Source: Candidatus Lokiarchaeum ossiferum (GTDB taxonomy: Archaea; Asgardarchaeota; Lokiarchaeia; Sigyniarchaeales; Promethearchaeaceae). Taken from it: a stretch of DNA of 32,000 bases. The number at the start of each line of letters is the position of its first letter. The stretch's first letter is position 1. The translations under genes were made by a program, and so were the position numbers. Location of the stretch: contig CP104013.1 of NCBI GenBank assembly GCA_025839675.1, forward strand, positions 150,001 through 182,000, read 5' to 3'. The notes under the pieces were generated by a model. That model was not told the DNA's origin. It ran no database searches and was given only the letters and a program-made list of their open reading frames with translations. Of this stretch, positions 4,623-31,754 are shown piece by piece.

Positions 4623-5330
4623 TTAGTTTTCCTTTTGTCCCTTGGTAATAAGGAGCAAAAAGATGAAAAAGATCACCGAAAATAAGAAAAGCAAGACGGG
4701 GATCATAGGTGTTGAATTTCCTGCCCATAAATAGGCTAAAAATCCAAAAGGTACGGCAAATATGATTGTGATTATTATTAAGGCAACAATATTTACAGGT
4801 GTCTCTTTTAAATCAATGATCAAAGGAATAATAACCGTCAAAGTTAACACAGTGCACATTATTTTATACACTAAAATTATTGCTGCTGAAGGCGAATAGG
4901 TAAATATATGGAACGTTTCCGGAATTCGAAACCATGTCCAAAATTCTTTAGTTCCATTTGCCATAAAATTTAAACTTGTAAATGCAGGTAACACTGCAGA
5001 TAAAATAAAATTTAAAATTAAAGCAATAATTAGAACTAAGACCACATCATCTGCATCTTTATAGCCCTCACTTTTATCCTTTATTAATATATCTCGAAAG
5101 ACTGCAAATAGCCAAAGGCATACAAGAACCATAGATGCACCTGTTGCCCCAAAATCATACATCGCATTCTTTGTAACGATATACCATAGATAATTTCCGG
5201 GTAGTAAAGCGAAGATGTAGGCTAACGTCCCGTAATTATCTCCTCTTTTGAAGAGATCATAGACTAAAAATATCCCATAGATCAATCCAAACGTTATAAG
5301 TAGAATTATTTCAGTTGCTGCGAAACCCAT
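4623..5330 (-). CDS. Hypothetical polytopic membrane protein (about 6-7 TM helices)
   Basis: 235-aa ORF, ATG start, dominated by hydrophobic helices. No family motif recognised. Confidence 0.6.
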   Translation of the reverse strand: MGFAATEIILLITFGLIYGIFLVYDLFKRGDNYGTLAYIFALLPGNYLWYIVTKNAMYDFGATGASMVLVCLWLFAVFRDILIKDKSEGYKDADDVVLVLIIALILNFILSAVLPAFTSLNFMANGTKEFWTWFRIPETFHIFTYSPSAAIILVYKIMCTVLTLTVIIPLIIDLKETPVNIVALIIITIIFAVPFGFLAYLWAGNSTPMIPVLLFLFSVIFFIFLLLITKGQKEN

Positions 5331-6061: not shown

Positions 6062-6994
6062 ATGTTACCGTATACTTTTTATGATTATCCCCGTGGGGAT
6101 ATCGATACCCTTACCAAATTTGCAATATTTGGTATCCCTTGGGATGCGAATTCAACTCATATGCAAGGATGTGCCCGCGCCGCCCCCTTAAAACTTCGGG
6201 AAATCACCTCTCATCTTGCCCGTATGACCGAAAAAGGACATAATATTGAAGAATTTGCTGCGGCGGATTTTGGGGATGTGAATATTTATCCTTCCTTGCC
6301 TGATAAATCACGATCCAATATCATAGAATTTGTCAAAGAGTTTTTACCTTGGAAAAGTGCCTCCCTCTTGCCAATTATGATTGGGGGTGATCATTATTGC
6401 ACCTATCCAGTTGTAAAAGCTCTTTCTGAAATATACGCGGAAAAATCCCAAGAGAAAATAGGAGTCATCATTTTTGATGCCCATCTTGATTACTATGATA
6501 AATGGTTGGATGTGGAAACGGATTTTCACTGTACGGTGACCAAAAGAATTACTGATTTGCCAAATATTGACCCCGAGCATGTGGCGGTAATTGGGATTCG
6601 GGATGCGGATATTCCAGAATATGAACTCGCCCGAACTGATGGCCTGTATTGGGTAAATGCCTATGAGTTATATCCCTACGATCAATTACAAAATCAAATT
6701 GAGAAGCTAATTACGTATTATAGGGCGAAAAACATAACCAAAATATACTTATCCATCGATATTGATGCATTAGATGGAGCTGTTGCTCCCGGAACAGGAT
6801 ATACTCTTCCTGGAGGTTTATCCTATCGGGATTTATGGCTATTCCTTCAGAAAATAATTCAGAATTTTACTCTCATTGGGATGGATTTAGTCGAAGTGGC
6901 GCCTGATATGGATCTCCCCTCAAAATTAACTCAAATTACTGCAGTAAAATTAATTACTGAAACGATGGCCTTTATTACTGAGAAAGAGGACTAA
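6062..6994 (+). CDS. speB: Agmatinase-like ureohydrolase (arginase/agmatinase family)
   Basis: Mn-binding motifs are present: IMIGGDHYCTYP, IFDAHLDYY, SIDIDALDGAVAPGTG, DLVEVAP. The stop lies 2 nt before the deoxyhypusine synthase start. Confidence 0.8.
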   Translation: MLPYTFYDYPRGDIDTLTKFAIFGIPWDANSTHMQGCARAAPLKLREITSHLARMTEKGHNIEEFAAADFGDVNIYPSLPDKSRSNIIEFVKEFLPWKSASLLPIMIGGDHYCTYPVVKALSEIYAEKSQEKIGVIIFDAHLDYYDKWLDVETDFHCTVTKRITDLPNIDPEHVAVIGIRDADIPEYELARTDGLYWVNAYELYPYDQLQNQIEKLITYYRAKNITKIYLSIDIDALDGAVAPGTGYTLPGGLSYRDLWLFLQKIIQNFTLIGMDLVEVAPDMDLPSKLTQITAVKLITETMAFITEKED

Positions 6995-9239: not shown

Positions 9240-11561
9240 ATGTTAATTGATCATATTTGGATTTGTAATCAATTCGGAATCAATTCAGATTGTTTTCAGA
9301 TATATCAAGAAAATACCGCAAGCTTCCTTAACGATCCAAAAATTTTAACCTCCCTAAAGAAGTGGCAAGCCTCCAAGTTTACACAAAACCATATTAGACT
9401 GAAATCCTCATCACTTAATCTTACCGAGGATGGTCCTATAAAAGAAACTTCCCTTTTCTTTTTTAGATACAGCTATTTATTCCAAGTTTTGAATACTTGT
9501 GTCCATTTTATTGCCCCTAAATTCAATTTGTCAAAAGATTATTGGGTTTATTATTATTGGACACACGATTATCAGAAAGAATTATTCCCAAATCTTAAAG
9601 AAACTTTCCCTTCGAATTTTAAAGGAAATGTAGTCATCGCAAAAGAAGATTTGTTTGGTGATCTGCTAAATGAAATACTAATGATTAATTTACGAGAAGA
9701 AAAAGGGATGTTTTATACTCCCCAGATTTTAAGTAATTTTTTTATGGAAATCCTAGTAAAAACTCAAATTTTCAGACAATCCCGAAAATTAATAGATCCA
9801 ACTTGTGGATCCGGAAGTATTCTTCTGCCCCTAATAAAAAAGATTATTAATACTACAGAGAATATCGAGCAAAAGAAAAATCACATTTTAAATATTTACG
9901 GGAACGATGAAAATCCCGTTGCAATTTTGGCTACTCTTGCTAACATAGTCAACCTACTATGTGAATATAATTTCTCTTCAGGATTTTATCAAAAAATGTG
10001 TCAGAATTTTTCTTGTCAAGATGTTTTTAAATTCCATAATTTATCAGAGAATCATGATTATAAACATCACTTTGATATAATTATCGGAAATCTTCCATGG
10101 AATGTGATAAACAACATCCAAAACCCTCAAATTAAGGAATTGATCATTTCAGTTGGAAAGGAATTTGATATTTTTATGACATGGAAGAATCAATCCAATT
10201 TAGAAATTGCAACTGTTCTATTCAAAATTTTACAGCATAATTTACTTACCGAAAATGGCCATATTGGTTTTTTACTTCCTGCTAGTTTATTAACTGCAAC
10301 GCAACATTCGAAATTCCGTCGATTTGAAGGATTGAAGAACTTGCACAGCTATCACATAATACCCGACTTCTTTCCAATACATTCGATGTATTTAATTGCT
10401 CAAAATGATCAAAATGCTTCTCGAAACGATGATTTTCAAATTATTACTGCAGAATACTATCATTTGTTTGAAGAATCAAATTCGTGGTCAAGAACTCGAA
10501 AAGAATGCTTGGAAGCATCTCATATTTCCTATCATCGTGGAAAACCTTTAGTCGGAAAGTATTATACTAAAAGCACGGAAGAATTTATTTTACCGATAAA
10601 GAAATCCGGATATTATTCTTCTGTAAAAAGAGGTATAGATATCACCCCTAGAAGGTTAATTTTTATCCAATCCACCAAATCCGTCAATGTTGCTTTTAAA
10701 AACCCTGAAACTCAAAAATTGGAGATTTTTCCTGATCTAGATCAAATGAAATCAACTCAGAGTTCACGATGGGATTTTACTCCGTATAAATCTTCCCAAA
10801 TTGACAGCAGTGATCTTCATTTGGTTGTTAAAAGTACTGACTTAATCCCCTTTGCTTTGAATAACTTTCACTATGCCTTTTTACCACTTAAAATCTATGA
10901 TGGACACTATATGTTAAAAAAAAATGAGGAGTTAGGTGCACATTCCCGTGACCATCTTAATCTACTTGAAGATATTTACAAAAAACACCGAAAACCTACT
11001 GCAAAAAATCAAACTTTGATGGATAGTCTAAATTATGGAAAAAAAATTCAAAATCCCGATATGATTGCTCCTATTAAGGTAGTTTATCCTGTTGGAGGCT
11101 CTTATTGTAAAGCAGCCATCATCAACCATCCAAATATAGTAATTGATGTTACATTTTATTATATTGCATGTAATGACAGGAATGAAGCATATTATTTGTT
11201 AGCATGGTTAAACTCTTCTCTTCTACAAAAAAATCTTCCCCGTGTTTGTACAATTGGGGCGAATGGGAGTATACGAGTCATTCATATGGCTCCCTGGATG
11301 TTTCCTCTTCCAAAGTTTAATTTTCAGCAAGAACAAATGAAAATTGTTGAATTATCGAAACAACTAGAAAATGTTTCCAGAAATGTTCTAATATCTAATA
11401 AGATTATTTCAAATCACTCTTTTCCTCATTTTACCAACAAGTTATTAAAAAAATCCCGAAGGAATGTCTATAAAATATTGAAAACAAGCTCAAAATATGT
11501 CGAAATAATTTCAAAAATTGATAATCTTTTTCTTTCTATGATAAAATTAAACGCAGAGTGA
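9240..11561 (+). CDS. Gamma-class N6-adenine DNA methyltransferase (Eco57I/TaqI-like) with a long C-terminal putative target-recognition region
   Basis: Motif X-like GMFYTPQILSNFFMEIL (about 9708-9760), motif I IDPTCGSGSILL (about 9795-9830), and motif IV FDIIIGNLPW (GNLPW at 10085-10099), which deviates from NPPW. ATG at 9240; the track start 9225 is TTG. Confidence 0.8.
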   Translation: MLIDHIWICNQFGINSDCFQIYQENTASFLNDPKILTSLKKWQASKFTQNHIRLKSSSLNLTEDGPIKETSLFFFRYSYLFQVLNTCVHFIAPKFNLSKDYWVYYYWTHDYQKELFPNLKETFPSNFKGNVVIAKEDLFGDLLNEILMINLREEKGMFYTPQILSNFFMEILVKTQIFRQSRKLIDPTCGSGSILLPLIKKIINTTENIEQKKNHILNIYGNDENPVAILATLANIVNLLCEYNFSSGFYQKMCQNFSCQDVFKFHNLSENHDYKHHFDIIIGNLPWNVINNIQNPQIKELIISVGKEFDIFMTWKNQSNLEIATVLFKILQHNLLTENGHIGFLLPASLLTATQHSKFRRFEGLKNLHSYHIIPDFFPIHSMYLIAQNDQNASRNDDFQIITAEYYHLFEESNSWSRTRKECLEASHISYHRGKPLVGKYYTKSTEEFILPIKKSGYYSSVKRGIDITPRRLIFIQSTKSVNVAFKNPETQKLEIFPDLDQMKSTQSSRWDFTPYKSSQIDSSDLHLVVKSTDLIPFALNNFHYAFLPLKIYDGHYMLKKNEELGAHSRDHLNLLEDIYKKHRKPTAKNQTLMDSLNYGKKIQNPDMIAPIKVVYPVGGSYCKAAIINHPNIVIDVTFYYIACNDRNEAYYLLAWLNSSLLQKNLPRVCTIGANGSIRVIHMAPWMFPLPKFNFQQEQMKIVELSKQLENVSRNVLISNKIISNHSFPHFTNKLLKKSRRNVYKILKTSSKYVEIISKIDNLFLSMIKLNAE

Positions 11562-21215: not shown

Positions 21216-21355
21216 TTCAAACTTATTAGAGTGTGTATTTGTAACTTAGCTAAATTTTTCTGGGTTTAATCAAGTGATAAATCCATCATCTTCTTCCACA
21301 AGAACTTCTAGAAGATTTATCTCATTTTCAAATTAAGTTTGAGAAGAAATGAGAG

Positions 21356-21427
21356 TGCGCCATCCGGGAATTGAACCCGGGTCTCCAGGTTGGGAACCTG
21401 AAATGCTAACCGCTACACAAATGGCGC
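21356..21427 (-). tRNA. tRNA-Gly (anticodon CCC), no intron, CCA not encoded
   Basis: Minus strand: GCGCCAT-TT-GTGT-AGCGGTTA-GCAT-T-TCAGG-TTCCCAA-CCTGG-AGAC-CCGGG-TTCAATT-CCCGG-ATGGCGC-A. I folded the full cloverleaf by hand: 7-bp acceptor stem, 5-bp anticodon stem, 5-bp T stem with a TTCAATT loop. Confidence 0.95.
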
Positions 21428-21674
21428 ATTTTTCTTTATGATACAAGAATCAAGAAAAGTAAAGATATACATATTATTTAAGAACCATATTTTAAAAAAT
21501 TTCTGTTATGGATACTGCATCTTATTGGCTACCGTATAATTCAAATTACCTCAATAGTTTGTGCTGCCCCTTTTATTAGTTGTAGTGTTTTTTAAAAGGA
21601 ATTTCTCGATGCAAAATGACCAGAAAAAAAAAATCATTTTCAAACAGTCGGAGGAAAAAAACGATTTTTACTTA

Positions 21675-22565
21675 CTAAATATCTGGCTTAATTTCAAATC
21701 CACACTTGTTTAACATATCTCGAGAAATATTCCATAATTTCGATTGATACTCTTCATCTTGAGTCATTTTATGGGATTTTGCAATAGCGCATTTCTTAAA
21801 ATATTCTCCTGAAATATTGGATACTTCTGGAGATGTTGCAAGATAGACACCAGTTTGAGCCGCTTTGTTAACAGGGGTATATAGTGGCCCCGATAGTGCT
21901 GTAAAAAAGCGCACAAATCGTGAATCATTTGAAGTTGTCATATTTGTTTTTACATGGCCAGGATGGAATGCATTTACGGTTATGCCCGTTCCAGCCAATT
22001 TTTTAGCTAAGTCTTTTGTAAAAAGGACATTTGCAAATTTTGCTGACCCGTAGGCTTTTTGTGATGCATATTTTTTTTCAAACATCAAATCCTCAAAATG
22101 GACTGTAAAAAACCGGTGAATATCTGATGAAACATTGATTATTCGGGCGGGAGCACTCTTTTTTAGAGATTCCAGCAGAAGTATGGTCAAATAGAAGTGT
22201 CCAAGGTGGGCCACAGCAAAAATCATTTCAAATCCATCTACACTTGTAGTGCGTTTTTGCTTAAAAACTCCCGCGTTATTTATGAGCACATCTAAACGGG
22301 GATATTTTGCCAAAAATTGATCCACCATGGGTTTAATTGTTCTCAAATTTCCTAAATCGGCAATTAATAGGTCGATTTTTGAATTTCCCGATCGATTTTT
22401 AATTTCTTCTAAGGCTTTTTTTCCACGATCTTCATTGCGACAAATCATGACTACATGATGGCCACGTTTCGCGAGTTGGATGGCCATTTCCTTCCCAATT
22501 CCTGAATTCGCTCCTGTGATCATACAGATTTTTTCCTCCATAAATACTGGAATGAAGGATTGCAT
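21675..22565 (-). CDS. Short-chain dehydrogenase/reductase (classical SDR, retinol-dehydrogenase-like)
   Basis: ITGANSGIGKE cofactor motif, NNAG, and catalytic YGSAKFAN (YxxxK). An alternative ATG at 22541 gives MEEKICMITG. Confidence 0.9.
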   Translation of the reverse strand: MQSFIPVFMEEKICMITGANSGIGKEMAIQLAKRGHHVVMICRNEDRGKKALEEIKNRSGNSKIDLLIADLGNLRTIKPMVDQFLAKYPRLDVLINNAGVFKQKRTTSVDGFEMIFAVAHLGHFYLTILLLESLKKSAPARIINVSSDIHRFFTVHFEDLMFEKKYASQKAYGSAKFANVLFTKDLAKKLAGTGITVNAFHPGHVKTNMTTSNDSRFVRFFTALSGPLYTPVNKAAQTGVYLATSPEVSNISGEYFKKCAIAKSHKMTQDEEYQSKLWNISRDMLNKCGFEIKPDI

Positions 22566-22712
22566 TATAAGTTAGAGAAAAAGCTAAAAGATATCAACCA
22601 TGTCTTTACCATGTTGGGGTTCAGGAATAATATCTGGATGAATTTAATCTATATTTGTAAACTTGTGGGATCAAAAAGGGAAGATTGATTGATAATATTC
22701 AAATTCCACTCA

Positions 22713-22892
22713 TCAAAAGAGAATCGATTTGAAGTCTTTAATCATTCTTTCTTTAACCATCCTATCATACTGAAGTTTTATCAATTCGTACTTGTCCTGT
22801 GTCATTTCACCCCTGTCAAATTTTACTCGTGCTAGTTCGAGGAGTGAAGTAGGATTGATGGATATTTCGCAATTTTGATTTTGCATTATCAT
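22713..22892 (-). CDS. Small SHOCT-like protein (59 aa), below the ORF-track cutoff
   Basis: My translation: MIMQNQNCEISINPTSLLELARVKFDRGEMTQDKYELIKLQYDRMVKERMIKDFKSILF. The segment LELARVKFDRGEMTQDKYELIK fits the SHOCT-type pattern L..L...G.IT...Y...K. It also resembles the Y ORFs at 23459 and 29617. Confidence 0.4.
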   Translation of the reverse strand: MIMQNQNCEISINPTSLLELARVKFDRGEMTQDKYELIKLQYDRMVKERMIKDFKSILF

Positions 22893-23014
22893 AACAGTAA
22901 TTTGTTTTTGGTTATTTTTAAATGAATCTAATAATGTATACGATCGTTTTATAGTTGGATTTTGAGCATATCCTCACAATTGAACGAGAATTTAATACTT
23001 GATTAGATCGGTAG

Positions 23015-23317
23015 TTAAATTAATTTCGCAAACATGGCTAATTGTGGGATCTGGCTTAAAGCCGTATGTCCATGATGTGCCATATGCTCATATCCTTGTG
23101 CAAGTGACTCTAAAAAATTTAAACTAATTGAATTATACGCTGATGGTGGCACCGTCCGATATAAAAATCTGCCTAATGTTCGGATATCATGAGATGTCAT
23201 AGAAACTGGTAGCGATAAGTGGTCCAAATGGTGTGCTAGTTCGCTGGGAAAAGGAAGTTTTTGGGAAACCAAAGATCTCTGGATCGATGAGGATGCTTGT
23301 GGAGATAAAATCGCCAT
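23015..23317 (-). CDS. Hypothetical small protein X (100 aa), intact copy of a repeated family
   Basis: ATG-initiated ORF. It shares FLYRTVPPS.Y..IS..F and LS.IPQL..FA blocks, at identical spacing, with the ORF at 28534-28761. All nucleotide differences in the FLYRTVPPS block are at third codon positions. Confidence 0.55.
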   Translation of the reverse strand: MAILSPQASSSIQRSLVSQKLPFPSELAHHLDHLSLPVSMTSHDIRTLGRFLYRTVPPSAYNSISLNFLESLAQGYEHMAHHGHTALSQIPQLAMFAKLI

Positions 23318-23407
23318 AGATCTCTTTTGTAATGTAACTATATAATGGCAGAAAATTTTGATAGATCGCTCTTCATTTTTTTCAGTTGAGAATGAAATAT
23401 TCCAGCA

Positions 23408-23419
23408 GACTTAAAAGTC
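23408..23419. promoter_or_regulatory. Palindrome GACTT-AA-AAGTC in the X/Y divergent intergenic region (putative operator), followed by a TATA-like attaatgtaagg
   Basis: The palindrome is perfect. It is conserved identically at 29567-29578, with the same 39-40 nt distance to the downstream Y start codon. Confidence 0.35.
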
Positions 23420-23458
23420 ATTTTACATGTATTAATGTAAGGACAACGTGTCTAAGTT

Positions 23459-23623
23459 ATGAGTTCCTCAAAAAATAGTTTTGCTCTCGATGACTATCCC
23501 TTCGTGCTAAGTAATGCCCACTTACACTTTATGCAAGGAAAAATTAGCCAACATCAGTGGGTGCGTATTCGTGGGCTATGTGAAGCCAAGGTTAAGACGT
23601 CTTCTGCAAAAAAAAACTCCTAA
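23459..23623 (+). CDS. Small protein Y (54 aa), SHOCT-like, copy A; below the ORF-track cutoff
   Basis: MSSSKNSFALDDYPFVLSNAHLHFMQGKISQHQWVRIRGLCEAKVKTSSAKKNS is about 50% identical to the 51-aa ORF at 29617-29772, and the upstream DNA is colinear. Confidence 0.55.
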   Translation: MSSSKNSFALDDYPFVLSNAHLHFMQGKISQHQWVRIRGLCEAKVKTSSAKKNS

Positions 23624-23740
23624 AACAGCCATCTTTGTGATGTCTTCACTCTACAAAAATTTAGAGTGAAATCAGTATGTAGCTACAGAACAAAAACCAA
23701 GAATTTAAAAACTCTTTTCAAGAGCTAAGTATGATAAAAA

Positions 23741-24718
23741 ATGAAAGTGGACAAAAAAATCATCATCCCGGTTATAATGCTTTTTGTGCTCGGATCGGTT
23801 TATGGCGGTTCATTTTTCGGAATTCAATCCTATATAAATTCTCAACTTGAGAATCCAAGTGAAGAAAGTAGTATGGAACTTCTTGATTTTCAAATCATTT
23901 CCATGGGGGATACTTTCATTGAAGTTTTTATTGATGCTGCATTAACAGGTTCAACTGAAAACACTCCGGCCTTTGAGGTTGAAATCCGGAATTTTCAAAT
24001 CATTCAAAATGATCAGATTTTAGCGGAATATACTCCCCTTTCTTTTTTTAGCATCAATACTGGATCTTCACACTTCAGCTTCACATTAAATGTTACAATT
24101 GTGGATCAACAGAAATTATTTGATTCAATTCAATCCATTTTAAATAAAGAAAATATTTATATCAATTTTGAGGTTAAAGTCAAAGTCAAAGGAATAGCTG
24201 CCATTTATCCACCTTTCTTTATAAAAAAACAATTTTTTATCAATTCGACCAATCTTCTTGAATCTGGGAGCGAAGAAACATTCTATAATATCCAATTCAA
24301 TTCCATTGATTTTGATATCACCAATTTAAAATGTGCCTTCAATTTTACTATTAGTATCACTAATCCTGTGAATTTTTCCATCAATATTACCGGTTTCAAA
24401 GGGTATGTGGATTTTGATGATTTAGATGGGGCAGGATTCTTAATATCGTCTAAAAATGATGTATTTCTTTTGGATTTTGATTATAACTGGGAAACTGAGC
24501 CCTTCACTTTGTTACCTGCTCAAAATTCTTCAAAAAATATCCTTTTCTCCGAAGATATTCCCGATGTGATTACTTCTTCGCGGATTTCAGATGAGTATTT
24601 TGTTAAAGATCATCTGCTAGTGGATATTACAAACGGGGAAATTGGATTAGAAATTGCGGGTTATCCATTTACTTTTCCCTTTTCATTGGAGAATATTTAC
24701 ATTCCTTTAAATGTTTAA
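23741..24718 (+). CDS. Membrane-anchored protein with beta-sandwich repeats, tentatively LEA_2/WHy-like
   Basis: N-terminal TM helix IIIPVIMLFVLGSVYGGSFF. Two regions have an alternating beta pattern and NP-x-NF-type motifs (FNFTISITNPVNFSINITGFKGYV). The family call is tentative. Confidence 0.45.
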   Translation: MKVDKKIIIPVIMLFVLGSVYGGSFFGIQSYINSQLENPSEESSMELLDFQIISMGDTFIEVFIDAALTGSTENTPAFEVEIRNFQIIQNDQILAEYTPLSFFSINTGSSHFSFTLNVTIVDQQKLFDSIQSILNKENIYINFEVKVKVKGIAAIYPPFFIKKQFFINSTNLLESGSEETFYNIQFNSIDFDITNLKCAFNFTISITNPVNFSINITGFKGYVDFDDLDGAGFLISSKNDVFLLDFDYNWETEPFTLLPAQNSSKNILFSEDIPDVITSSRISDEYFVKDHLLVDITNGEIGLEIAGYPFTFPFSLENIYIPLNV

Positions 24719-24994
24719 TCCAAACTATGAATAAATCAATGTTATTCTGAATATAAAGGAATAATTGAAATACCCAATGACCTCTGAATTACTAATCATC
24801 AATAGAATTATTGATAATTAGGAAAAATATAAATTTAAAAGAGATTGAGCAAAATTTACGGGATCAGATTTGAATTGTCCTCATGAGATAGAAAATAAAA
24901 AAACTCTTAATAAAAACAAATGAATCATCTCTCCATTAGATAGAAGTTTTTCAAATTCTATGATATGGAAATTAGTAAATTAAATTTCTGTTAG

Positions 24995-27900: not shown

Positions 27901-28162
27901 CCCAGGCAACCTCAAAAGAATAGGTTCCACTTGATTCCAAGGGCAATTTGATTTGATTATTTCCGGAAACTCCTTCCATCTCGGTATTCCATACTGACAC
28001 AAAAGTATTTGATCCATAGGATGATTTGATTTGTGTTGGTTCAGAATATTCATCCCTTAATTCTTCATTCAAGGGTGTTATGTCAACGGTTCCAAATATT
28101 CCGATACAGAGTAAACTTATCACCGCCAAGACTCCTCCGATATTCTTGTTGAGTTGTTTCAT
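24995..28162 (-). CDS. Large surface protein: signal/anchor, about 24 DUF285-type 26-residue repeats (BspA-like), PKD domain, Gly/Ser/Thr linker, C-terminal TM anchor
   Basis: N-terminal module FVSVWNTE...YSFEVAWGDGENNT. Repeats of the type FxGAxxFNQPIGNWDVSSVTNMxxMF. PKD signature FWDFGDGTSSTLQNPTHSYSSSGTFTITLWVTDGQGN. C-terminus FFFIIMMGVMIHLIKNAKSKK. Confidence 0.85.
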   Translation of the reverse strand: MKQLNKNIGGVLAVISLLCIGIFGTVDITPLNEELRDEYSEPTQIKSSYGSNTFVSVWNTEMEGVSGNNQIKLPLESSGTYSFEVAWGDGENNTITAWNQSEITHTYPSSGIYIVEISGILQGWRFAGSGDCLKISEISQWGSIAFGNNGNYFEGCENLILTAIDAPNLAGTTSLERTFYRCLNLGTIGNMNSWDVAQITSMREMFFTGEWDLATDFNQPINLWDVSSVSDMNMMFGWATDFNQPIEVWNVSSVIDMGSIFTHAWSFNQPIGIWDVSSVTNMGGTFHWATSFNQPLDTWNVSKVTNMGGMFFDAYSFNQNINSWDVSSVTNMAEMFHGINIYNQPLNNWDVSNVNTMNSLFCGAETFDQEIGNWNISRVTDTSRMFEGASSFNQPIGNWDVSKVTTMNRMFLDTLAFNQPIGGWNVSCVLDMQSMFSGTSAFNQAIGEWDVSNVQHLDGMFCGASVFDQPIGNWNLTNIITMSGVFSSALAFNQDINNWDVSSITDLSHMFENAISFNQDINNWDVSSVTNMFSMFSGASAFNQPLWNWDVSHVNNMHGMFSNALNFDQFLNIWNISQVTTTRWMFYEAQTFNQPLDNWDTSQITNMECMFEHAFAFNQPLNSWDVSHVTEMNKMFDSAENFDQPLNDWNVSSVTNMNSMFSGASAFNQPLDTWDVSKVTDMSSMFYWAISFDQPLNNWNVSRVTNMGRMFGGATAFNGSIDSWDVSSVTNIWDMFIDTDSFNQDIGSWDVSNVITMHATFARAKAFNQPIGLWNVSKVTSMWYMFQGAENFNQPIENWDVASVTQMGSMFQGATVFNQDLSQWDVSSVTNMENMFAEAALSSTNYDALLLGWSELFLQSNVIFHAGNSNYHESIAGNAHDILTYIYGWTIEDGGPIKVLEVSFTPSSGNDVFRLEEFSLYGTSIGEFLPFTYFWDFGDGTSSTLQNPTHSYSSSGTFTITLWVTDGQGNTDYATMTIIVIPVSGTGSGTSDNSNPRGTQSEDTDPFADVLGSIPGYSMNFFFIIMMGVMIHLIKNAKSKKFSSGGLRRSLKFGS
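25645..27550 (-). repeat. Coding tandem array with about 78-bp period (26-residue repeats) inside the surface-protein gene
   Basis: The recurring string gacatcccaa...ttgattgaa is visible about every 78 nt on the plus strand (reverse complement of FNQ..WDVS). Confidence 0.85.
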
Positions 28163-28454
28163 AATATATCTATCTGTTTGTTTTGTTTTATTACATTTTT
28201 TATTGAATTATGACACTAGTATCTTTATAATTTATAAAATGTTTCGAAGTCCGTTATGAATCTAATAGAGAATTTGATTGTTTTATTATTGATCTCATAA
28301 TCAAGTCAATTCATTTTCCTTTTTAACCAAGCTTTTACACTCACAATAGTCATTAGAGATAACAATGTATGCGAAGCAGACATTATATAGGTCTATCCAT
28401 TTATGGGAATTCTGAAAAGTACTGCTAAAAAATTACTGGGTGATTAAAAGAGGT

Positions 28455-28761
28455 ATGTCTCAATCATCCTCATTTATTCCAAGTCCTTCATTCTGCTATC
28501 CAAAAAATTTCTGTACTCCGTTTTCTCACTTCAGTGGAACTCATTCTCTCCAGCATAAACCTTCCTAAACCAATGCCTTCAAAAGAACGAAAATGCTTGA
28601 CCTTCTTATATCGAACTGTCCCCCCTTCAACTTATTCTGGCATCAGTATTCCCTTTTTTCACTCTTTCCCGAAGGAATGCTCATCCATTACGTCTCATTG
28701 CAAGATGTCATTAAGCAATATTCCACAATTGACCGCTTTCGCTCGCTTTTGCCCTAAATGA
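28455..28761 (+). pseudogene. X paralogue B1, inverted relative to X at 23015-23317; apparently frameshifted or N-terminally truncated
   Basis: The C-terminal 75 codons (track ORF 28534-28761, GTG start) align without gaps to X. An upstream ATG at 28455 opens a 37-codon ORF in another frame (MSQSSSFIPSPS...) matching the X N-terminus (SPQASSSIQRS). The catcctcat and ccaaaaa anchors are 4 nt further apart than in X, which implies a frameshift between about 28470 and 28500. Confidence 0.45.
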
Positions 28762-28805
28762 GTACCTAAACATTTAATAACATTTTAATCATACTTCTAT
28801 CCAAG

Positions 28806-29312
28806 ATGTCAAAAGATATTATGATTACCAATATCGAGGAAGGCCGAAAGGCAATTAATCTGGCATTAAACCATCTTAATACCAATATTATTAGCAAAAT
28901 TTATGGTCTCGAGCAGAAAAGCTTGTCTTTGGATCAATATAATGGGACTTTTCAGCAATATGCACGTTGGTTAGTTTGCCTTAACAATTTCATTAAATCA
29001 GGAGAATTATACGACCTCCAAAATTTCTTAGAAAAACCGAAGAAGCTGCGACATTACCGAAAACCTCCAACTGTAGAAGGTACCTCGAAAAAGATCAAAT
29101 ATTCCATCGAAATGCCTCCGGAAAAAATCACCGCTTTAAAAAATTCATTGATTACCGAACAAGAACGGATTAGAGATTTAATTACTTTGGTATTAGAAGC
29201 TCGAAAACGCGTTAATGAGCGAAAAGCAATTCGACTTAATATATTGATATCTATTGGAGCGGCATTAATGGCATTAGTGTCTCTTCTCTTCAGCTTAAAT
29301 GTTTTTCCATAG
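28806..29312 (+). CDS. Hypothetical tail-anchored protein (168 aa)
   Basis: ATG ORF with a helical soluble part and C-terminal LNILISIGAALMALVSLLFSL. No family recognised. Confidence 0.5.
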   Translation: MSKDIMITNIEEGRKAINLALNHLNTNIISKIYGLEQKSLSLDQYNGTFQQYARWLVCLNNFIKSGELYDLQNFLEKPKKLRHYRKPPTVEGTSKKIKYSIEMPPEKITALKNSLITEQERIRDLITLVLEARKRVNERKAIRLNILISIGAALMALVSLLFSLNVFP

Positions 29313-29374
29313 GGGAAAATTTTGTTTGGATTTCCTATTTTTTTCTTCCATAAATTAAAATGCAATAATTATCA

Positions 29375-29482
29375 AATGTCGGGCGAATCCCACATAATTC
29401 ATTAATCCGTTTGAAAATGGAAGAATATCTGAAATCAATGATGAGAGGGACCAATGATGATCCTTTAGAGATATGTCTCCAT
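29375..29482 (-). pseudogene. X fragment B2: decayed 5-prime part of an X gene still attached to its Y partner
   Basis: The start context ccatagatctctt is conserved with 23315-23327. The minus strand reads ATGGAGACATATCTCTAA (early stop). Downstream CTTCCATTTTCAAACGGATTA aligns with X CTTCCTTTTCCCAGCGAACTA. Similarity is lost near 29375. Confidence 0.45.
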
Positions 29483-29566
29483 AGATCTCTTATGTGATAA
29501 ATCTAAAGGAAGGCAGAAATTTTTGAAGAATTATTCTTCTTCATCTGGGAATCATATTCATCCTTA

Positions 29567-29578
29567 GACTTAAAAGTC
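29567..29578. promoter_or_regulatory. Second copy of the palindrome GACTTAAAAGTC (putative operator) upstream of Y copy B
   Basis: Identical 12-mer, embedded in a 17-nt identical block agacttaaaagtcattt shared with 23407-23423. Confidence 0.35.
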
Positions 29579-29616
29579 ATTTAAAATATATTACAGTAAG
29601 GACAATTGATTTGTTC

Positions 29617-29772
29617 ATGAATTCGTCAAAAAAAACTTTTAATATCAAAGATTATTCCCTCGTCCAAGAGAATGCCTATCTACATTATATAAAGGGTAAA
29701 ATATCTTTGGATCAATTATATCGTATTCGTAGGAAATGTTCTGCCAAAATTAAGTCTGACTCCAAGAATTAA
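29617..29772 (+). CDS. Small protein Y (51 aa), SHOCT-like, copy B; below the ORF-track cutoff
   Basis: MNSSKKTFNIKDYSLVQENAYLHYIKGKISLDQLYRIRRKCSAKIKSDSKN is colinear with Y copy A. Shared positions include M.SSK..F...DY..V..NA.LH...GKIS..Q...IR..C.AK.K. Confidence 0.55.
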   Translation: MNSSKKTFNIKDYSLVQENAYLHYIKGKISLDQLYRIRRKCSAKIKSDSKN

Positions 29773-30158
29773 CTTTTATATTTAATTCTCTTATTGACAG
29801 GGTCTGTACAAAATTAGGATCGAGTTTTTCCTGAATATATTTGGGCCCATCCTTCAATGTTATCAGATTTCATCAAAATATGATCTTTAATTTAAAGTAC
29901 GTGCAGAAAAGAATTTAGTGTTTACATTTTGGAATGTAGTTTCTAACTTTAGATACTAAATAAAAAATAAAAAATCTACAATTTCAAAATTCTACCCCGT
30001 AAAGATTAAGGAATGCTTTAGAAATTGCCCCAAAATGTAAATACGTATGAATTTTTAGATTAATACCGTGGAAAATTCTAATATTTGTTTAATACTTCTT
30101 TATATTAATGAAAAAAAATAATGGGAAAGAAGGAACTCGAATTCGCATTCCAACCTTG

Positions 30159-30557
30159 TTATCCTGATTTATCTCCTTTTCCTTGCATTTTTAATTCAAT
30201 ATGATTAATTCGGTTTTTTTTTGAAATAAGAAAAATTACTGCCCAAATTGAAAATGAACTGAATCCTATAATACTGTAAATATTAAACACTTCAATATTC
30301 ATCGTTGGAGTATCATTATCTTCTAAACTACTTTCTATAGGACTAGTCGTTGTATTTGAATTTTCGGTCGTAGTTGTTGTACTTGATGCCGTAGTTGTTG
30401 TACTTGATGTCGTAGTTGTTGAAGAGTTAATTTTTCCAACATCAATCGTAGATCTCCTACTTTCTCCTCCGATGTTACTTGCTTTTATATAATAGAAATA
30501 ATAATATCCAATAAGGACCTCCCAATCAGAATAAGTAAAGTTATACCTATCAACCAC
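30159..30557 (-). pseudogene. 3-prime remnant of a surface-protein gene: end of an FN3-like domain, Thr/Ser-rich stalk, C-terminal TM anchor
   Basis: YYYFYYIKASNIGGESRRS looks like the last strands of an FN3 domain. It is followed by TTTTSSTTTTASSTTTTTENSNTTTS and IIGFSSFSIWAVIFLISKKNR. There is no ATG and no signal peptide; the frame opens just after a stop and begins at GTG. Confidence 0.5.
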
Positions 30558-30574
30558 TGCAAGAAGGAAGTAAG

Positions 30575-30635
30575 AATCTTCAAATAATTCGCTTCGACAT
30601 CTACATTACATAAAGGGTAAAATATCTTCATAGGG
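30575..30635 (+). pseudogene. Remnant of a third Y copy (copy C)
   Basis: 30601-30628 ctacattacataaagggtaaaatatctt is 27/28 identical to 29680-29707 inside Y copy B (codons for YLHYIKGKIS). The flanks are only weakly similar and there is no start codon. Confidence 0.45.
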
Positions 30636-31436: not shown

Positions 31437-31448
31437 TCGAACCGTGCT

Positions 31449-31754
31449 TTAAATTAATTCAATTTCTACTAAAACTTGTTCAGGGAACATAATTTTCATT
31501 ATCAAAACCATAGAACGTTCATCGGCATTAACATCAATCAAACGCTTATGGATTCTCATCTGATAGTGCTCCCACGTAGTTGTTCCCTCCCCACAAGGAC
31601 TTTTTTGGGTAGGGATGGTAAGTTTTTTGGTGGGAAGGGGGACGGGGCCATACATTTTGACACCGGTTTTGGTGACAACGCGTTTAATTTCACTGATAAC
31701 TTGGTTGAGGGCATCCATATCAACGGAGCTTAATCTGACTCGTGCTTTTTGCAT
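31449..31754 (-). CDS. rps10: 30S ribosomal protein S10 (uS10)
   Basis: MQKARVRLSS...GVKMYGPVPLPTKKLTIPTQKSPCGEGTTTWEHYQMRIHKRLIDVNADE matches archaeal uS10 throughout. Confidence 0.95.
   Translation of the reverse strand: MQKARVRLSSVDMDALNQVISEIKRVVTKTGVKMYGPVPLPTKKLTIPTQKSPCGEGTTTWEHYQMRIHKRLIDVNADERSMVLIMKIMFPEQVLVEIELI

Follow-up and report, generated by a model that had tools for sequence, protein, structure and literature searches.

A local duplication of orphan-gene DNA around two divergent small genes in Candidatus Lokiarchaeum ossiferum

Do two small genes of Candidatus Lokiarchaeum ossiferum B35, which face away from each other and recur in part nearby, form a new two-gene regulatory system? 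The genes X (NEF87_000145) and Y (NEF87_000146), both exact matches to annotated proteins, are located in the window, which is the whole 32,000-nt stretch of DNA that was analysed. In the first-pass annotation they were described as a duplicated cassette around a palindromic operator, resembling an autoregulated two-component module of the regulator/effector or toxin-antitoxin-like kind. The duplication is genuine and ordinary, with approximately 0.4 kb of orphan-gene DNA having one extra copy nearby. The evidence shows no new two-gene system, and a new type of system is not revealed. The reading favoured here, with moderate confidence, is an old duplication of ~0.4 kb, in which X and Y are independent small proteins that have a promoter region in common and do not form an obligate module.

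If this ordinary reading is true, its main value is for annotation. Ca. L. ossiferum gains two small genes that had been left unannotated (Y_B and X') along with a pseudogene stub, and two orphan families that are species- or genus-restricted are delimited. In addition, the region provides a candidate bidirectional promoter, in which BRE/TATA and start-site blocks are conserved, for an organism with an unmapped promoter architecture, and this candidate could aid the design of genetic tools for cultured Asgard archaea. The locus would be of greater importance only if Y proved to bind the conserved 17-mer discussed below.

Extent of the repeat

X is encoded by the minus strand and Y by the plus strand, and their start codons, facing away from each other, are 141 bp apart. 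This locus is referred to as copy A and the second occurrence as copy B. The genes and remnants of both copies are the following:

23015-23317, minus strand: X_A, 100-aa orphan ORF NEF87_000145, the exact annotated protein
23459-23623, plus strand: Y_A, 54-aa basic orphan protein NEF87_000146, the exact annotated protein
28456-28545, plus strand: possible out-of-frame remnant of the X N-terminus upstream of X' (weak evidence)
28534-28761, plus strand: X', paralogue of X codons 31-100, opposite in orientation to psi-X_B and 0.7 kb away from it
28806-29312, plus strand: p168, tail-anchored 168-aa orphan protein, an ORF between X' and psi-X_B
29402-29482, minus strand: psi-X_B, dead stub matching X codons 1-26, interrupted by a stop (codon 6) and a frameshift
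29483-29616, no strand: copy B intergenic region, 71% identical to 23318-23458 (z 11.6), with the same conserved blocks
29617-29772, plus strand: Y_B, 51-aa paralogue of Y, 51% identical to Y_A at the amino acid level over 49 aa

The two copies are colinear and in the same orientation, as first proposed, but the repeat is smaller and less complete than was claimed. Its revised extents are approximately 23240-23610 for copy A and 29402-29766 for copy B. Using BLASTN, 23281-23544 is aligned to 29448-29702 with 69% identity over 266 nt (E 6e-22). The repeat spans the first 26 codons of X, the 141 bp between the two genes (71%) and the first 49 codons of Y (51% at the amino acid level), and the Y frames of 54 and 51 aa indeed have the identity of about 50% reported earlier. 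Similarity had also been extended to ~40 nt beyond the Y stop codons, where the identity (29/80) is that of the background. The intergenic part is identical at 95 of 134 positions, and its global alignment score of 43 compares with -20.6 +/- 5.5 for shuffled sequences and with a maximum of -5 among 225 other segments of the window. Both copies contain an identical 13-mer, CCATAGATCTCTT, and the identical 17-nt block of the first-pass annotation, AGACTTAAAAGTCATTT (23407-23423 and 29566-29582). For an alignment of 266 columns at 69% identity, the P of such a 17-nt run is about 0.13, so that the run is unremarkable on its own.

The X gene that had been assigned to copy B is absent, and only the 26-codon remnant with its stop and frameshift is found there. 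This remnant is identical to X_A at 52 of 76 positions (68%), and its codon blocks 1-13 and 14-26 each have a z of about 4, a score reached by none of 956 control segments. For X codons 27-100, no similarity is observed in copy B (z -2.1 to 0.3). The duplicated piece consists of Y, the ~140-bp upstream region and the first ~26 codons of the divergent X, and the copies now differ at roughly one third of sites. An intact X-Y pair is present in copy A only, the X part of copy B being a dead stub.

In strain B36, the locus orthologous to copy A is 82-88% identical, and the intergenic region of copy B is 100% identical. The sharp edges of the conserved block in the B36 comparison are an alignment artefact of a 100-nt indel beside the X stop codon. 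Also, a third, decayed copy of the intergenic region plus Y was considered upstream of X', and was rejected as non-significant (z 0.7-1.8).

Two small protein families

X and Y look like real, divergent small protein genes, judged by their substitution patterns. In B36 the orthologue of X is intact, unchanged in length and 79% identical at the amino acid level, and that of Y_A is an intact ORF of 54 aa. Between B35 and B36, the dN/dS is 0.36 for X (0.28 for codons 40-100 and 0.51 for codons 1-39) and 0.47 for Y, so neither value is near 1, in agreement with the first-pass description of both ORFs as genes. The annotated frames of X and Y have the lowest dN/dS among all six frames. Comparison of the paralogues resulted in a pN/pS of 0.34/0.81 for X and a pN of 0.30 with a pS of 0.65 for Y. 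X' matches X with 41% identity over 70 aa (tblastn, E 3e-13; z 8.2 at the DNA level), and in the stretch FLYRTVPPS six of the nine codons differ only synonymously. Between the strains, X' has three synonymous changes and one non-synonymous change (Fisher p 0.04). Translation of X' may start at the GTG at 28534 (75 aa) or at the ATG at 28573 (62 aa), which is equivalent to M40 of X. The conserved core of X_A comprises residues 40-100 (23015-23200) with the motifs FLYRTVPPS.Y..IS and IPQL..FA, and M40 is invariant in all four members of the family.

These substitution patterns bear on a rival reading, in which neither ORF is a real gene and the conservation is that of a non-coding RNA or a mobile-element end. 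It would be consistent with the orphan status of both proteins, with the dead X stub that is still 68% identical to X_A, with the hairpins near the Y stop codons and with a piece of 33 nt from Y_B repeated at 30597-30628, at a deletion edge. The synonymous-only differences in FLYRTVPPS, the pN well below pS in both families and the lowest dN/dS in the annotated frame argue against it, and it is given a very small chance. The hairpin reported after Y in copy A is present on the plus strand at 23645-23670, 22 nt after the Y_A stop, with a stem of 9 bp where 8 had been stated. In B36 a hairpin of 8-9 bp, unconserved in sequence, likewise comes after the Y stop, and in copy B such a hairpin, AU-rich and with an 8-bp stem, overlaps the stop codon (29765-29789; fold analysis). 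The fold z-scores are weak (-2.5, -1.2 and +0.45). Against a non-coding RNA, the Rfam search gave tRNA-Gly only, and RNAalifold found no compensatory changes on either strand of the control region. Against a mobile-element end or an invertible switch, no terminal repeats flank the copies, and no integrase, transposase or invertase ORF is found in 21-32 kb.

Y had been thought to be missed by standard gene calling. This does not apply to Y_A, which is annotated as NEF87_000146, and does apply to the B36 orthologue of Y_A and to Y_B, which is unannotated in both strains and absent from the protein database. Neither X nor Y can be assigned to a characterised family, as was also concluded at first, since no match was obtained in Pfam, NCBIfam, PADLOC, PDB or the fold libraries (Foldseek PDB/BFVD). 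PDB sequence profiles gave no match for either protein, no HTH, wHTH or RHH domain was detected by HMM or fold search, and no toxin-like fold was found by fold search. When X, Y and a Y profile were used in word-indexed homologue searches, B35 and B36 proteins only were returned. Back-translated scans of genome, metagenome and viral contig collections gave no match, not even to Lokiarchaeum itself, and nothing was obtained when Y_B was compared with 50,697 phage records by tblastn. Y_B matches the PHROG family phrog_8740 over residues 6-51 (E 1.9e-4, 22 bits), whereas Y_A has no such match, and phrog_8740 itself is of unknown function. No expression or proteome data for NEF87_000145 and NEF87_000146 were found in the papers and supplements consulted. 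The neighbouring p168 is identical in B36 and has no family match in profile searches.

The AF2 model of X_A has five helices at low confidence (pLDDT 62.8). That of Y_A (pLDDT 80.6) is a two-helix hairpin with helices at residues 10-25 and 31-52. Y is thus predicted to be a small basic helical hairpin, a shape that is the sole structural lead on its function. Such hairpins are typical of oligomerising or nucleic-acid-binding mini-proteins. The SHOCT domain (Short C-terminal domain, PF09851) has the pattern L..L...G.I[ST]..E[FY]. Y may resemble it as a hairpin of ~40 residues with two helices around a G-x-I-S turn, modelled at Q26-G-K-I-S30, and the pattern is also present in p59, a neighbouring conserved 59-aa protein. 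At rank 12 of the BFVD search, Y is matched to a phage protein annotated as 'Short C-terminal domain' (TM 0.68, rmsd 0.9 over 39 columns), with a non-significant E of 0.6. The E-values of the fold searches are non-significant in this comparison, and any helical hairpin scores alike. Using hmmscan against Pfam at E<=10, nothing was obtained for Y_A, Y_B, the Y orthologue or p59. A relation of Y to the p59 family was rejected (hhalign probability 1.3%, non-significant). Also rejected was a link to the provirus of cultured B36 (Fylgjavirus), which maps to a different part of the genome (4.36 Mb) and has no relation to this region.

HMMER with an X profile against 1.84 billion representatives gave one real relative, P0004, and two other matches that are repeat junk. 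P0004, which begins at M40, is encoded by an X-family gene on contig L003 of a related metagenomic Lokiarchaeon. No Y is found beside this gene, indicating that the X-Y pair is not obligate. Y_B, in turn, persists without a live X. Further co-occurrence of X and Y, set beforehand as a test, is not seen in the two strains and the one related contig, in which X' and P0004 have no adjacent Y. Within the window and the few other loci read from the 6-Mb genome and its relatives, the proposed two-component cassette is reduced accordingly to a single intact X-Y pair, with the orthologous locus in B36 as its only other occurrence. X and Y would be species-restricted and independent, with a promoter region common to both at one locus.

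These distributions also weigh on the suggestion that X and Y form a toxin-antitoxin-like or defence module of two small proteins, to which almost no probability is assigned. In favour of such a module are two small genes side by side and a partly palindromic sequence close to the promoter, in a region among variable islands. Type II toxin-antitoxin pairs are co-directional operons, and the antitoxin has a recognisable DNA-binding fold. X and Y, in contrast, are divergent and not co-transcribed, and have no such fold. In addition, they have no PADLOC, Pfam or NCBIfam match, no match to a PHROG of known function and no toxin-like fold, and the two families occur separately in the two strains and the related contig, X being found without Y.

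The intergenic control region

Four elements of the intergenic region of copy A are considered here:

23338-23346, minus strand: TATA-like box of X_A, ATTATATAG, read from the sequence and centred 25 nt before the X ATG
23347-23361, no strand: conserved block GGCAGAAAATTTTGA, near-invariant in copy A, its B36 orthologue and copy B
23407-23423, plus strand: 17-nt block AGACTTAAAAGTCATTT, containing the imperfect inverted repeat GACTT-AA-AAGTC (23408-23419)
23437-23446, plus strand: conserved block GTAAGGACAA, about 22 nt downstream of TTAAAA, invariant in the three-way alignment except for one A/G change

The 17-nt block had been described as holding a perfect palindrome, GACTTAAAAGTC. Its reverse complement is GACTTTTAAGTC, and what is present is a pair of 5-bp arms, GACTT and AAGTC, around AA. 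This inverted repeat with its central mismatch occurs in both copies, and in 140 nt chance alone is expected to give repeats of 5 bp. Its similar distance from the Y ATG in the two copies was correctly noted, the repeat ending 39 nt upstream in copy A and 38 nt in copy B. In B36, the right arm is AAGTT, with a change of C to T, and the TTAAAAG is intact.

TTAAAA (23411-23416) is invariant in copy A, its B36 orthologue and copy B. Archaeal BRE/TATA elements precede the transcription start site by about 25 nt. In the window, p59 and a gene for a 325-aa protein have boxes of the TTTAAAA type about 30-38 nt ahead of their ATG codons. From its position and the comparison with these genes, the best reading of the 17-mer is as the BRE/TATA element (TTAAAA) of a Y promoter, and GTAAGGACAA would be the Y transcription start region. 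A second AT-rich stretch (23424-23436) could be the Y TATA in B35 and is poorly kept in B36. On the other side, the X TATA-like box is TTTTATAG in B36 and degenerate (TTTAGAT) in copy B. With the predicted X_A box only 25 nt before the ATG, a leaderless X mRNA would be expected.

The intergenic region would then be a compact bidirectional archaeal promoter, and the 'palindromic operator' would be mainly a core promoter element, whose flanks are probably self-complementary in part by chance. As in bidirectional BRE/TATA promoters of archaea, two opposed AT-rich boxes are present ~70 bp apart, one of them 25 nt before the X ATG and the other ~22 nt before a conserved block. When copy A, its B36 orthologue and copy B are compared, these two boxes are conserved best among the intergenic elements. 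The likeness is qualified in that the 17-mer is taken as a TATA element, rather than an operator, from its position only.

An autoregulated two-gene module would use the same sequence differently, with the product of X or Y, most plausibly the basic hairpin Y, binding GACTT-AA-AAGTC and controlling both genes. The divergent layout and the conserved 17-mer with its inverted repeat just upstream of Y are in line with it, as are the small size, basic charge and helical nature of Y, which are not specific. Between the copies, conservation of the intergenic region (71%) and of the dead X stub (68%) is no lower than that of the third codon positions of Y (55%; Fisher p 0.05), and this would allow for an additional cis-acting element, for instance an operator. 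Divergent pairs of an autoregulator and its target, of the LysR type in bacteria and of the Lrp/TrmB type in archaea, likewise consist of divergent genes around a short control region with an inverted repeat. However, in X and Y no HTH, wHTH or RHH and no other DNA-binding fold or domain is detectable, and the repeat has only 5+5 bp, is not kept as a repeat in B36, where one arm base is lost, and lies in a run that is non-significant by itself. The occurrence of X' and P0004 without Y and of Y_B without a live X also argues against this module, which is considered unlikely.

A more far-reaching version has been assigned a still lower probability and is thought quite improbable. In this version, a new Lokiarchaeum-specific regulatory pair, in which Y binds GACTT-N2-AAGTC and switches the X and Y promoters, duplicates and rearranges as a unit beside genes for DUF285 surface proteins, and the split of X_B is the trace of an inversion that uncoupled X. 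Its remaining probability comes from the 68-71% identity of the intergenic region and the dead stub, and from the position of all X-family genes found, each of which adjoins a DUF285 gene.

History of copy B

More than one origin is possible for the X stub of copy B. Copy B may once have been a complete X-Y cassette, in which an inversion of ~0.85 kb (roughly 28546-29400) split X_B. The inversion would have moved codons 31-102 of X_B (now X') and p168 to the other strand and left the 26-codon stub beside Y_B. The complementary coverage fits this history, the stub corresponding to X codons 1-26 and X' to codons 31-100, in opposite orientations and 0.7 kb apart. Also, undoing the inversion results in a gene of ~308 nt, where 303-309 nt is expected. 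However, the 90 nt upstream of X' (28456-28545) are weakly colinear with X codons 1-30 in a global alignment (z 2.45, equalled by 2 of 956 control segments), and the local match is CAATCATCCTCATTTATTCC against CAAGCATCCTCATCGATCC. With such a colinear similarity, X' would be an independent full-length copy with a broken frame. In addition, no inverted repeats are found at the predicted breakpoints (about 28540 and 29400), the orientation is identical in both strains, and a partial duplication ending inside X accounts for the stub equally well. The inversion is regarded as a possible but doubtful origin of the stub.

Extent of the duplicated unit

The X-Y cassette reflects a real local duplication of moderate age, in which a small orphan gene (Y) was copied with its promoter region and a fragment of its divergent neighbour (X); this part of the L. 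ossiferum genome is prone to rearrangement. The duplication gives no indication of a new kind of system. The features concerned are as follows.

22713-22892 (-): p59, 59-aa neighbour of X (10536-10712 in L001, a locus of sister strain B36; 11870-12046 in L003, a metagenome contig of a more distantly related Lokiarchaeon)
23015-23317 (-): X of copy A, 100 aa
23459-23623 (+): Y of copy A (Y_A), 54 aa
24995-28162 (-): DUF285/PKD gene, 1055 aa
28534-28761 (+): X', paralogue of X, divergent from the start of the 1055-aa gene; matches X codons 31-100 (E 3e-13, z 8.2)
28806-29312 (+): p168, 168-aa ORF
29402-29772: copy B, comprising an X stub (-), the intergenic region and Y_B (29617-29772, +, 51 aa)
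L003, 5718-8138: orthologous DUF285 gene, 806 aa
L003, 8526-8786: P0004, X relative, just after the 806-aa gene

The colinear homology reported in the first-pass annotation is real (BLASTN, 23281-23544 versus 29448-29702: 69% over 266 nt, E 6e-22), but it ends at X codon 26 and at the Y stops. In the 141-bp intergenic region, 95 of 134 positions are identical, with a global alignment score of 43; shuffles scored -20.6 +/- 5.5, and none of 225 other window segments scored above -5. Leftward, similarity runs through X codons 1-26 (52/76 identical; z ~4 per 13-codon block) and is then lost, while rightward it can be followed at the protein level up to Y residue 49, with 51% identity. These limits place the true unit at ~23240-23610 versus 29402-29766. 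The tails past the Y stop codons had also been described as homologous; no homology was found there, and the next 80 columns (29/80 identical) are at background. Copy B has no X gene: what had been taken for X there is a remnant interrupted by a stop at codon 6 and by a frameshift.

A 33-nt piece of Y_B (codons 19-30, CTATCTACATTAYATAAAGGGTAAAATATCTT) is repeated ~0.9 kb downstream with 32/33 positions identical (29674-29706 and 30597-30628; 6870-6902 and 10258-10291 in the B36 locus L005). The downstream repeat lies precisely at the right edge of a 2.45-kb deletion in B35 relative to B36, and no resemblance to Y was found on either side of it.

Coding status and relatives of X and Y

X and Y are identical to the annotated proteins NEF87_000145 and NEF87_000146 of Ca. 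Lokiarchaeum ossiferum B-35 (chromosome 6.03 Mb); Y_A is thus annotated, contrary to the expectation that standard gene calling would miss it. Both ORF lengths are exactly kept in the diverged B36 locus. In keeping with the initial reading of both ORFs as genes, dN/dS between B35 and B36 (0.36 in X, 0.47 in Y) is lower in the coding frame of each gene than in any of the other five frames. Between paralogues, pN and pS are 0.30 and 0.65 for Y_A versus Y_B, and 0.34 and 0.81 for X versus X', where six of the nine codons of the FLYRTVPPS motif differ, every difference being synonymous. These comparisons lead to the conclusion that X and Y code for protein, or did so until recently. The AlphaFold2 prediction for Y is a hairpin of two helices (residues 10-25 and 31-52, pLDDT 80.6), and for X it is five helices with low confidence (pLDDT 62.8).

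As in the first-pass annotation, neither protein could be assigned to a characterised family: X and Y had no match in Pfam (to E<=10), NCBIfam, PADLOC or PDB sequences, and fold searches returned nothing significant. The sole exception is a match of Y_B, not shared by Y_A, to the function-unknown family phrog_8740 (E 1.9e-4). When 1.84 billion representative proteins were scanned in full with HMMER, one further X relative emerged, P0004 (86 aa), with 54% identity over X residues 38-100. The first residue of P0004 corresponds to X Met40, an in-frame stop lies 11 codons before it, and Met40 is invariant in all four X-family members, which places the conserved core of X at residues 40-100. X' carries three synonymous changes and one non-synonymous change between B35 and B36 (Fisher p 0.04), tiny counts that suggest it is still under selection. 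No further Y relatives were found in any collection searched. As far as the data go, X and Y are new protein families limited to Lokiarchaeum.

Constant pairing of X and Y was not borne out. Across the window, the B36 loci and the L003 contig, the intact divergent pair is present only in copy A and its B36 orthologue; no Y-like sequence was found in the 18.8 kb examined of the 28.8-kb contig carrying P0004, no Y or intergenic homology was detected upstream of X', and Y_B lies beside a dead stub. This indicates that the pair is not an obligate module. A toxin-antitoxin module, as had been proposed, is not supported: X and Y are divergent, match no family or fold and are each found separately.

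Every X-family gene found sits near a DUF285 surface-protein gene, X of copy A being two genes from the 1055-aa gene; this proximity may be a coincidence inside one syntenic neighbourhood. Directly downstream of X, p59 is conserved in each of the three genomes, with aa identities of 92% and 68%. The Y hairpin with its G-K-I-S turn resembles the SHOCT pattern, a lead only, and a phage protein annotated SHOCT is among the non-significant BFVD structural matches to Y. A similar helix-turn pattern, FDRGEMTQDKY, is present in p59, which has no Pfam match. SHOCT membership of Y is not established, as the SHOCT Pfam HMM did not match Y and the hhalign profile comparison of p59 with Y was not significant.

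The region upstream of Y and the hairpins

When copy A, its B36 orthologue and copy B are aligned, the invariant blocks are CCATAGATCTCTT (X start codon and leader), GCAGAAAWTTTTGA, AGACTTAAAAGT and GTARGGACAA. ATTATATAG on the X strand (TTTTATAG in B36) has its centre 25 nt before the ATG, a spacing that, judged by position, fits a leaderless archaeal mRNA.

The 17-mer (23407-23423 and 29566-29582) had been called a palindromic operator. Its supposedly perfect palindrome GACTTAAAAGTC has the reverse complement GACTTTTAAGTC, leaving 5-bp arms around AA; the right arm is AAGTT in B36. For a 17-nt run of identity in a 266-column alignment at 69%, P is ~0.13. TTAAAA within the 17-mer, 45 nt before the Y ATG, is the only AT-rich Y element common to all three sequences; a second AT-rich stretch, closer to the ATG, is degenerate in the B36 sequence (ATATCGTACGTACTTATG). 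GTAAGGACAA, also conserved, starts ~22 nt downstream of TTAAAA, at the expected start-site position, and similar boxes, TTTAAAA, stand 30-38 nt ahead of the ATGs of neighbouring genes. In B36, TTAAAAG is unaffected by the change that disrupts the inverted repeat. By position and conservation, we therefore infer that the 17-mer is a putative BRE/TATA of Y rather than an operator. A regulator/operator pair was not demonstrated: no DNA-binding domain was detected in X or Y, and the short repeat is not preserved in B36. A true Y-operated switch is highly improbable. Between copies A and B, the intergenic region (71%) and the dead stub (68%) are about as conserved as Y second codon positions (73%) and more so than third positions (55%; p 0.05), so an additional cis function upstream of Y is possible.

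RNAalifold predicts a hairpin around the X start codon (GATCTATGG... paired with ...CATCGATC) in copy A (23290-23340, -), its orthologue and dead copy B (29455-29505, -). Its energy is -6.6 kcal/mol and it shows no covariation, the pairs being invariant or changed on one side.

The hairpin described in the copy A tail exists (23645-23670, 9 bp), without conservation of its sequence. Just past the Y stop, the B36 orthologue also has a hairpin, of 8-9 bp and unrelated in sequence, and in copy B one overlaps the stop. Perfect 8-bp hairpins number only 16 across the 32-kb window. The recurrence at the Y stop hints at a possible 3'-end element, which the fold z-scores (-2.5, -1.2 and +0.45) are too weak to carry further.

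History of copy B and its neighbourhood

Copy B has the same arrangement in B35 and B36, with 98-100% identity. It may be a partial duplication in which the end of the copied segment fell inside X. The complementary coverage of the stub (X codons 1-26) and X' (codons 31-100), which lie in opposite orientation with p168 between them, suggests instead a complete cassette later split by a ~0.85-kb inversion, but the putative breakpoints have no inverted repeats. Together with the shared arrangement, this gives no sign of a programmed inversion switch. Weak colinearity of 28456-28545 with X codons 1-30 (z 2.45; 2/956 controls) suggests that X' could also be an independent full-length copy with a frame-broken N-terminal part.

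The neighbourhood extends from tRNA-Gly and an SDR gene to rpS10, with DUF285/PKD surface-protein genes within. An orthologous locus is present in the second complete genome, CP163304 (6.27 Mb), which matches strain B36, and L003 is syntenic with the window, common genes being ~77% identical; insertions and deletions set the three apart. Strain B36 is reported to have 97.2% ANI to B35 genome-wide and a genome of 6.2 Mb (bioRxiv 10.64898/2026.02.13.705702). Copy A is unusually diverged between the strains (X 87.8%, intergenic region 81.6%, Y 82.4%). The SDR-p59-X-Y-325aa stretch (21355-24720 versus L001) is 81-88% identical, and the copy B stretch (28000-30597 versus L005) 98-100%. This mosaic suggests that recombination replaced alleles around copy A.

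B36 has a 4.4-kb insertion (L001 4122-8526) separating the DUF285 and 325-aa genes, where B35 has only 257 nt; it encodes a serpin, a DUF3592 protein, a 331-aa protein and an LVIVD-repeat protein. The 132-aa ORF at 30159-30557 (-) is what remains, at the C-terminal end, of an 861-aa DUF285/fibronectin-III surface protein, intact in B36 (L005 7353-9938, -); in B35 the 2.45-kb deletion took away ~700 N-terminal residues. Fragments of the rpS10 3' end (50-121 nt) are repeated inside variable islands of B36 and L003.

31439-31559, window: rpS10 3' end
1221-1341 and 11088-11137, L005: rpS10 3'-end fragments
4954-5074, L001: rpS10 3'-end fragment
9998-10055, L003: rpS10 3'-end fragment

These fragments look like att-site remnants of rpS10-targeting integrative elements; one in B36 adjoins ParB_N and PAPS-reductase genes.
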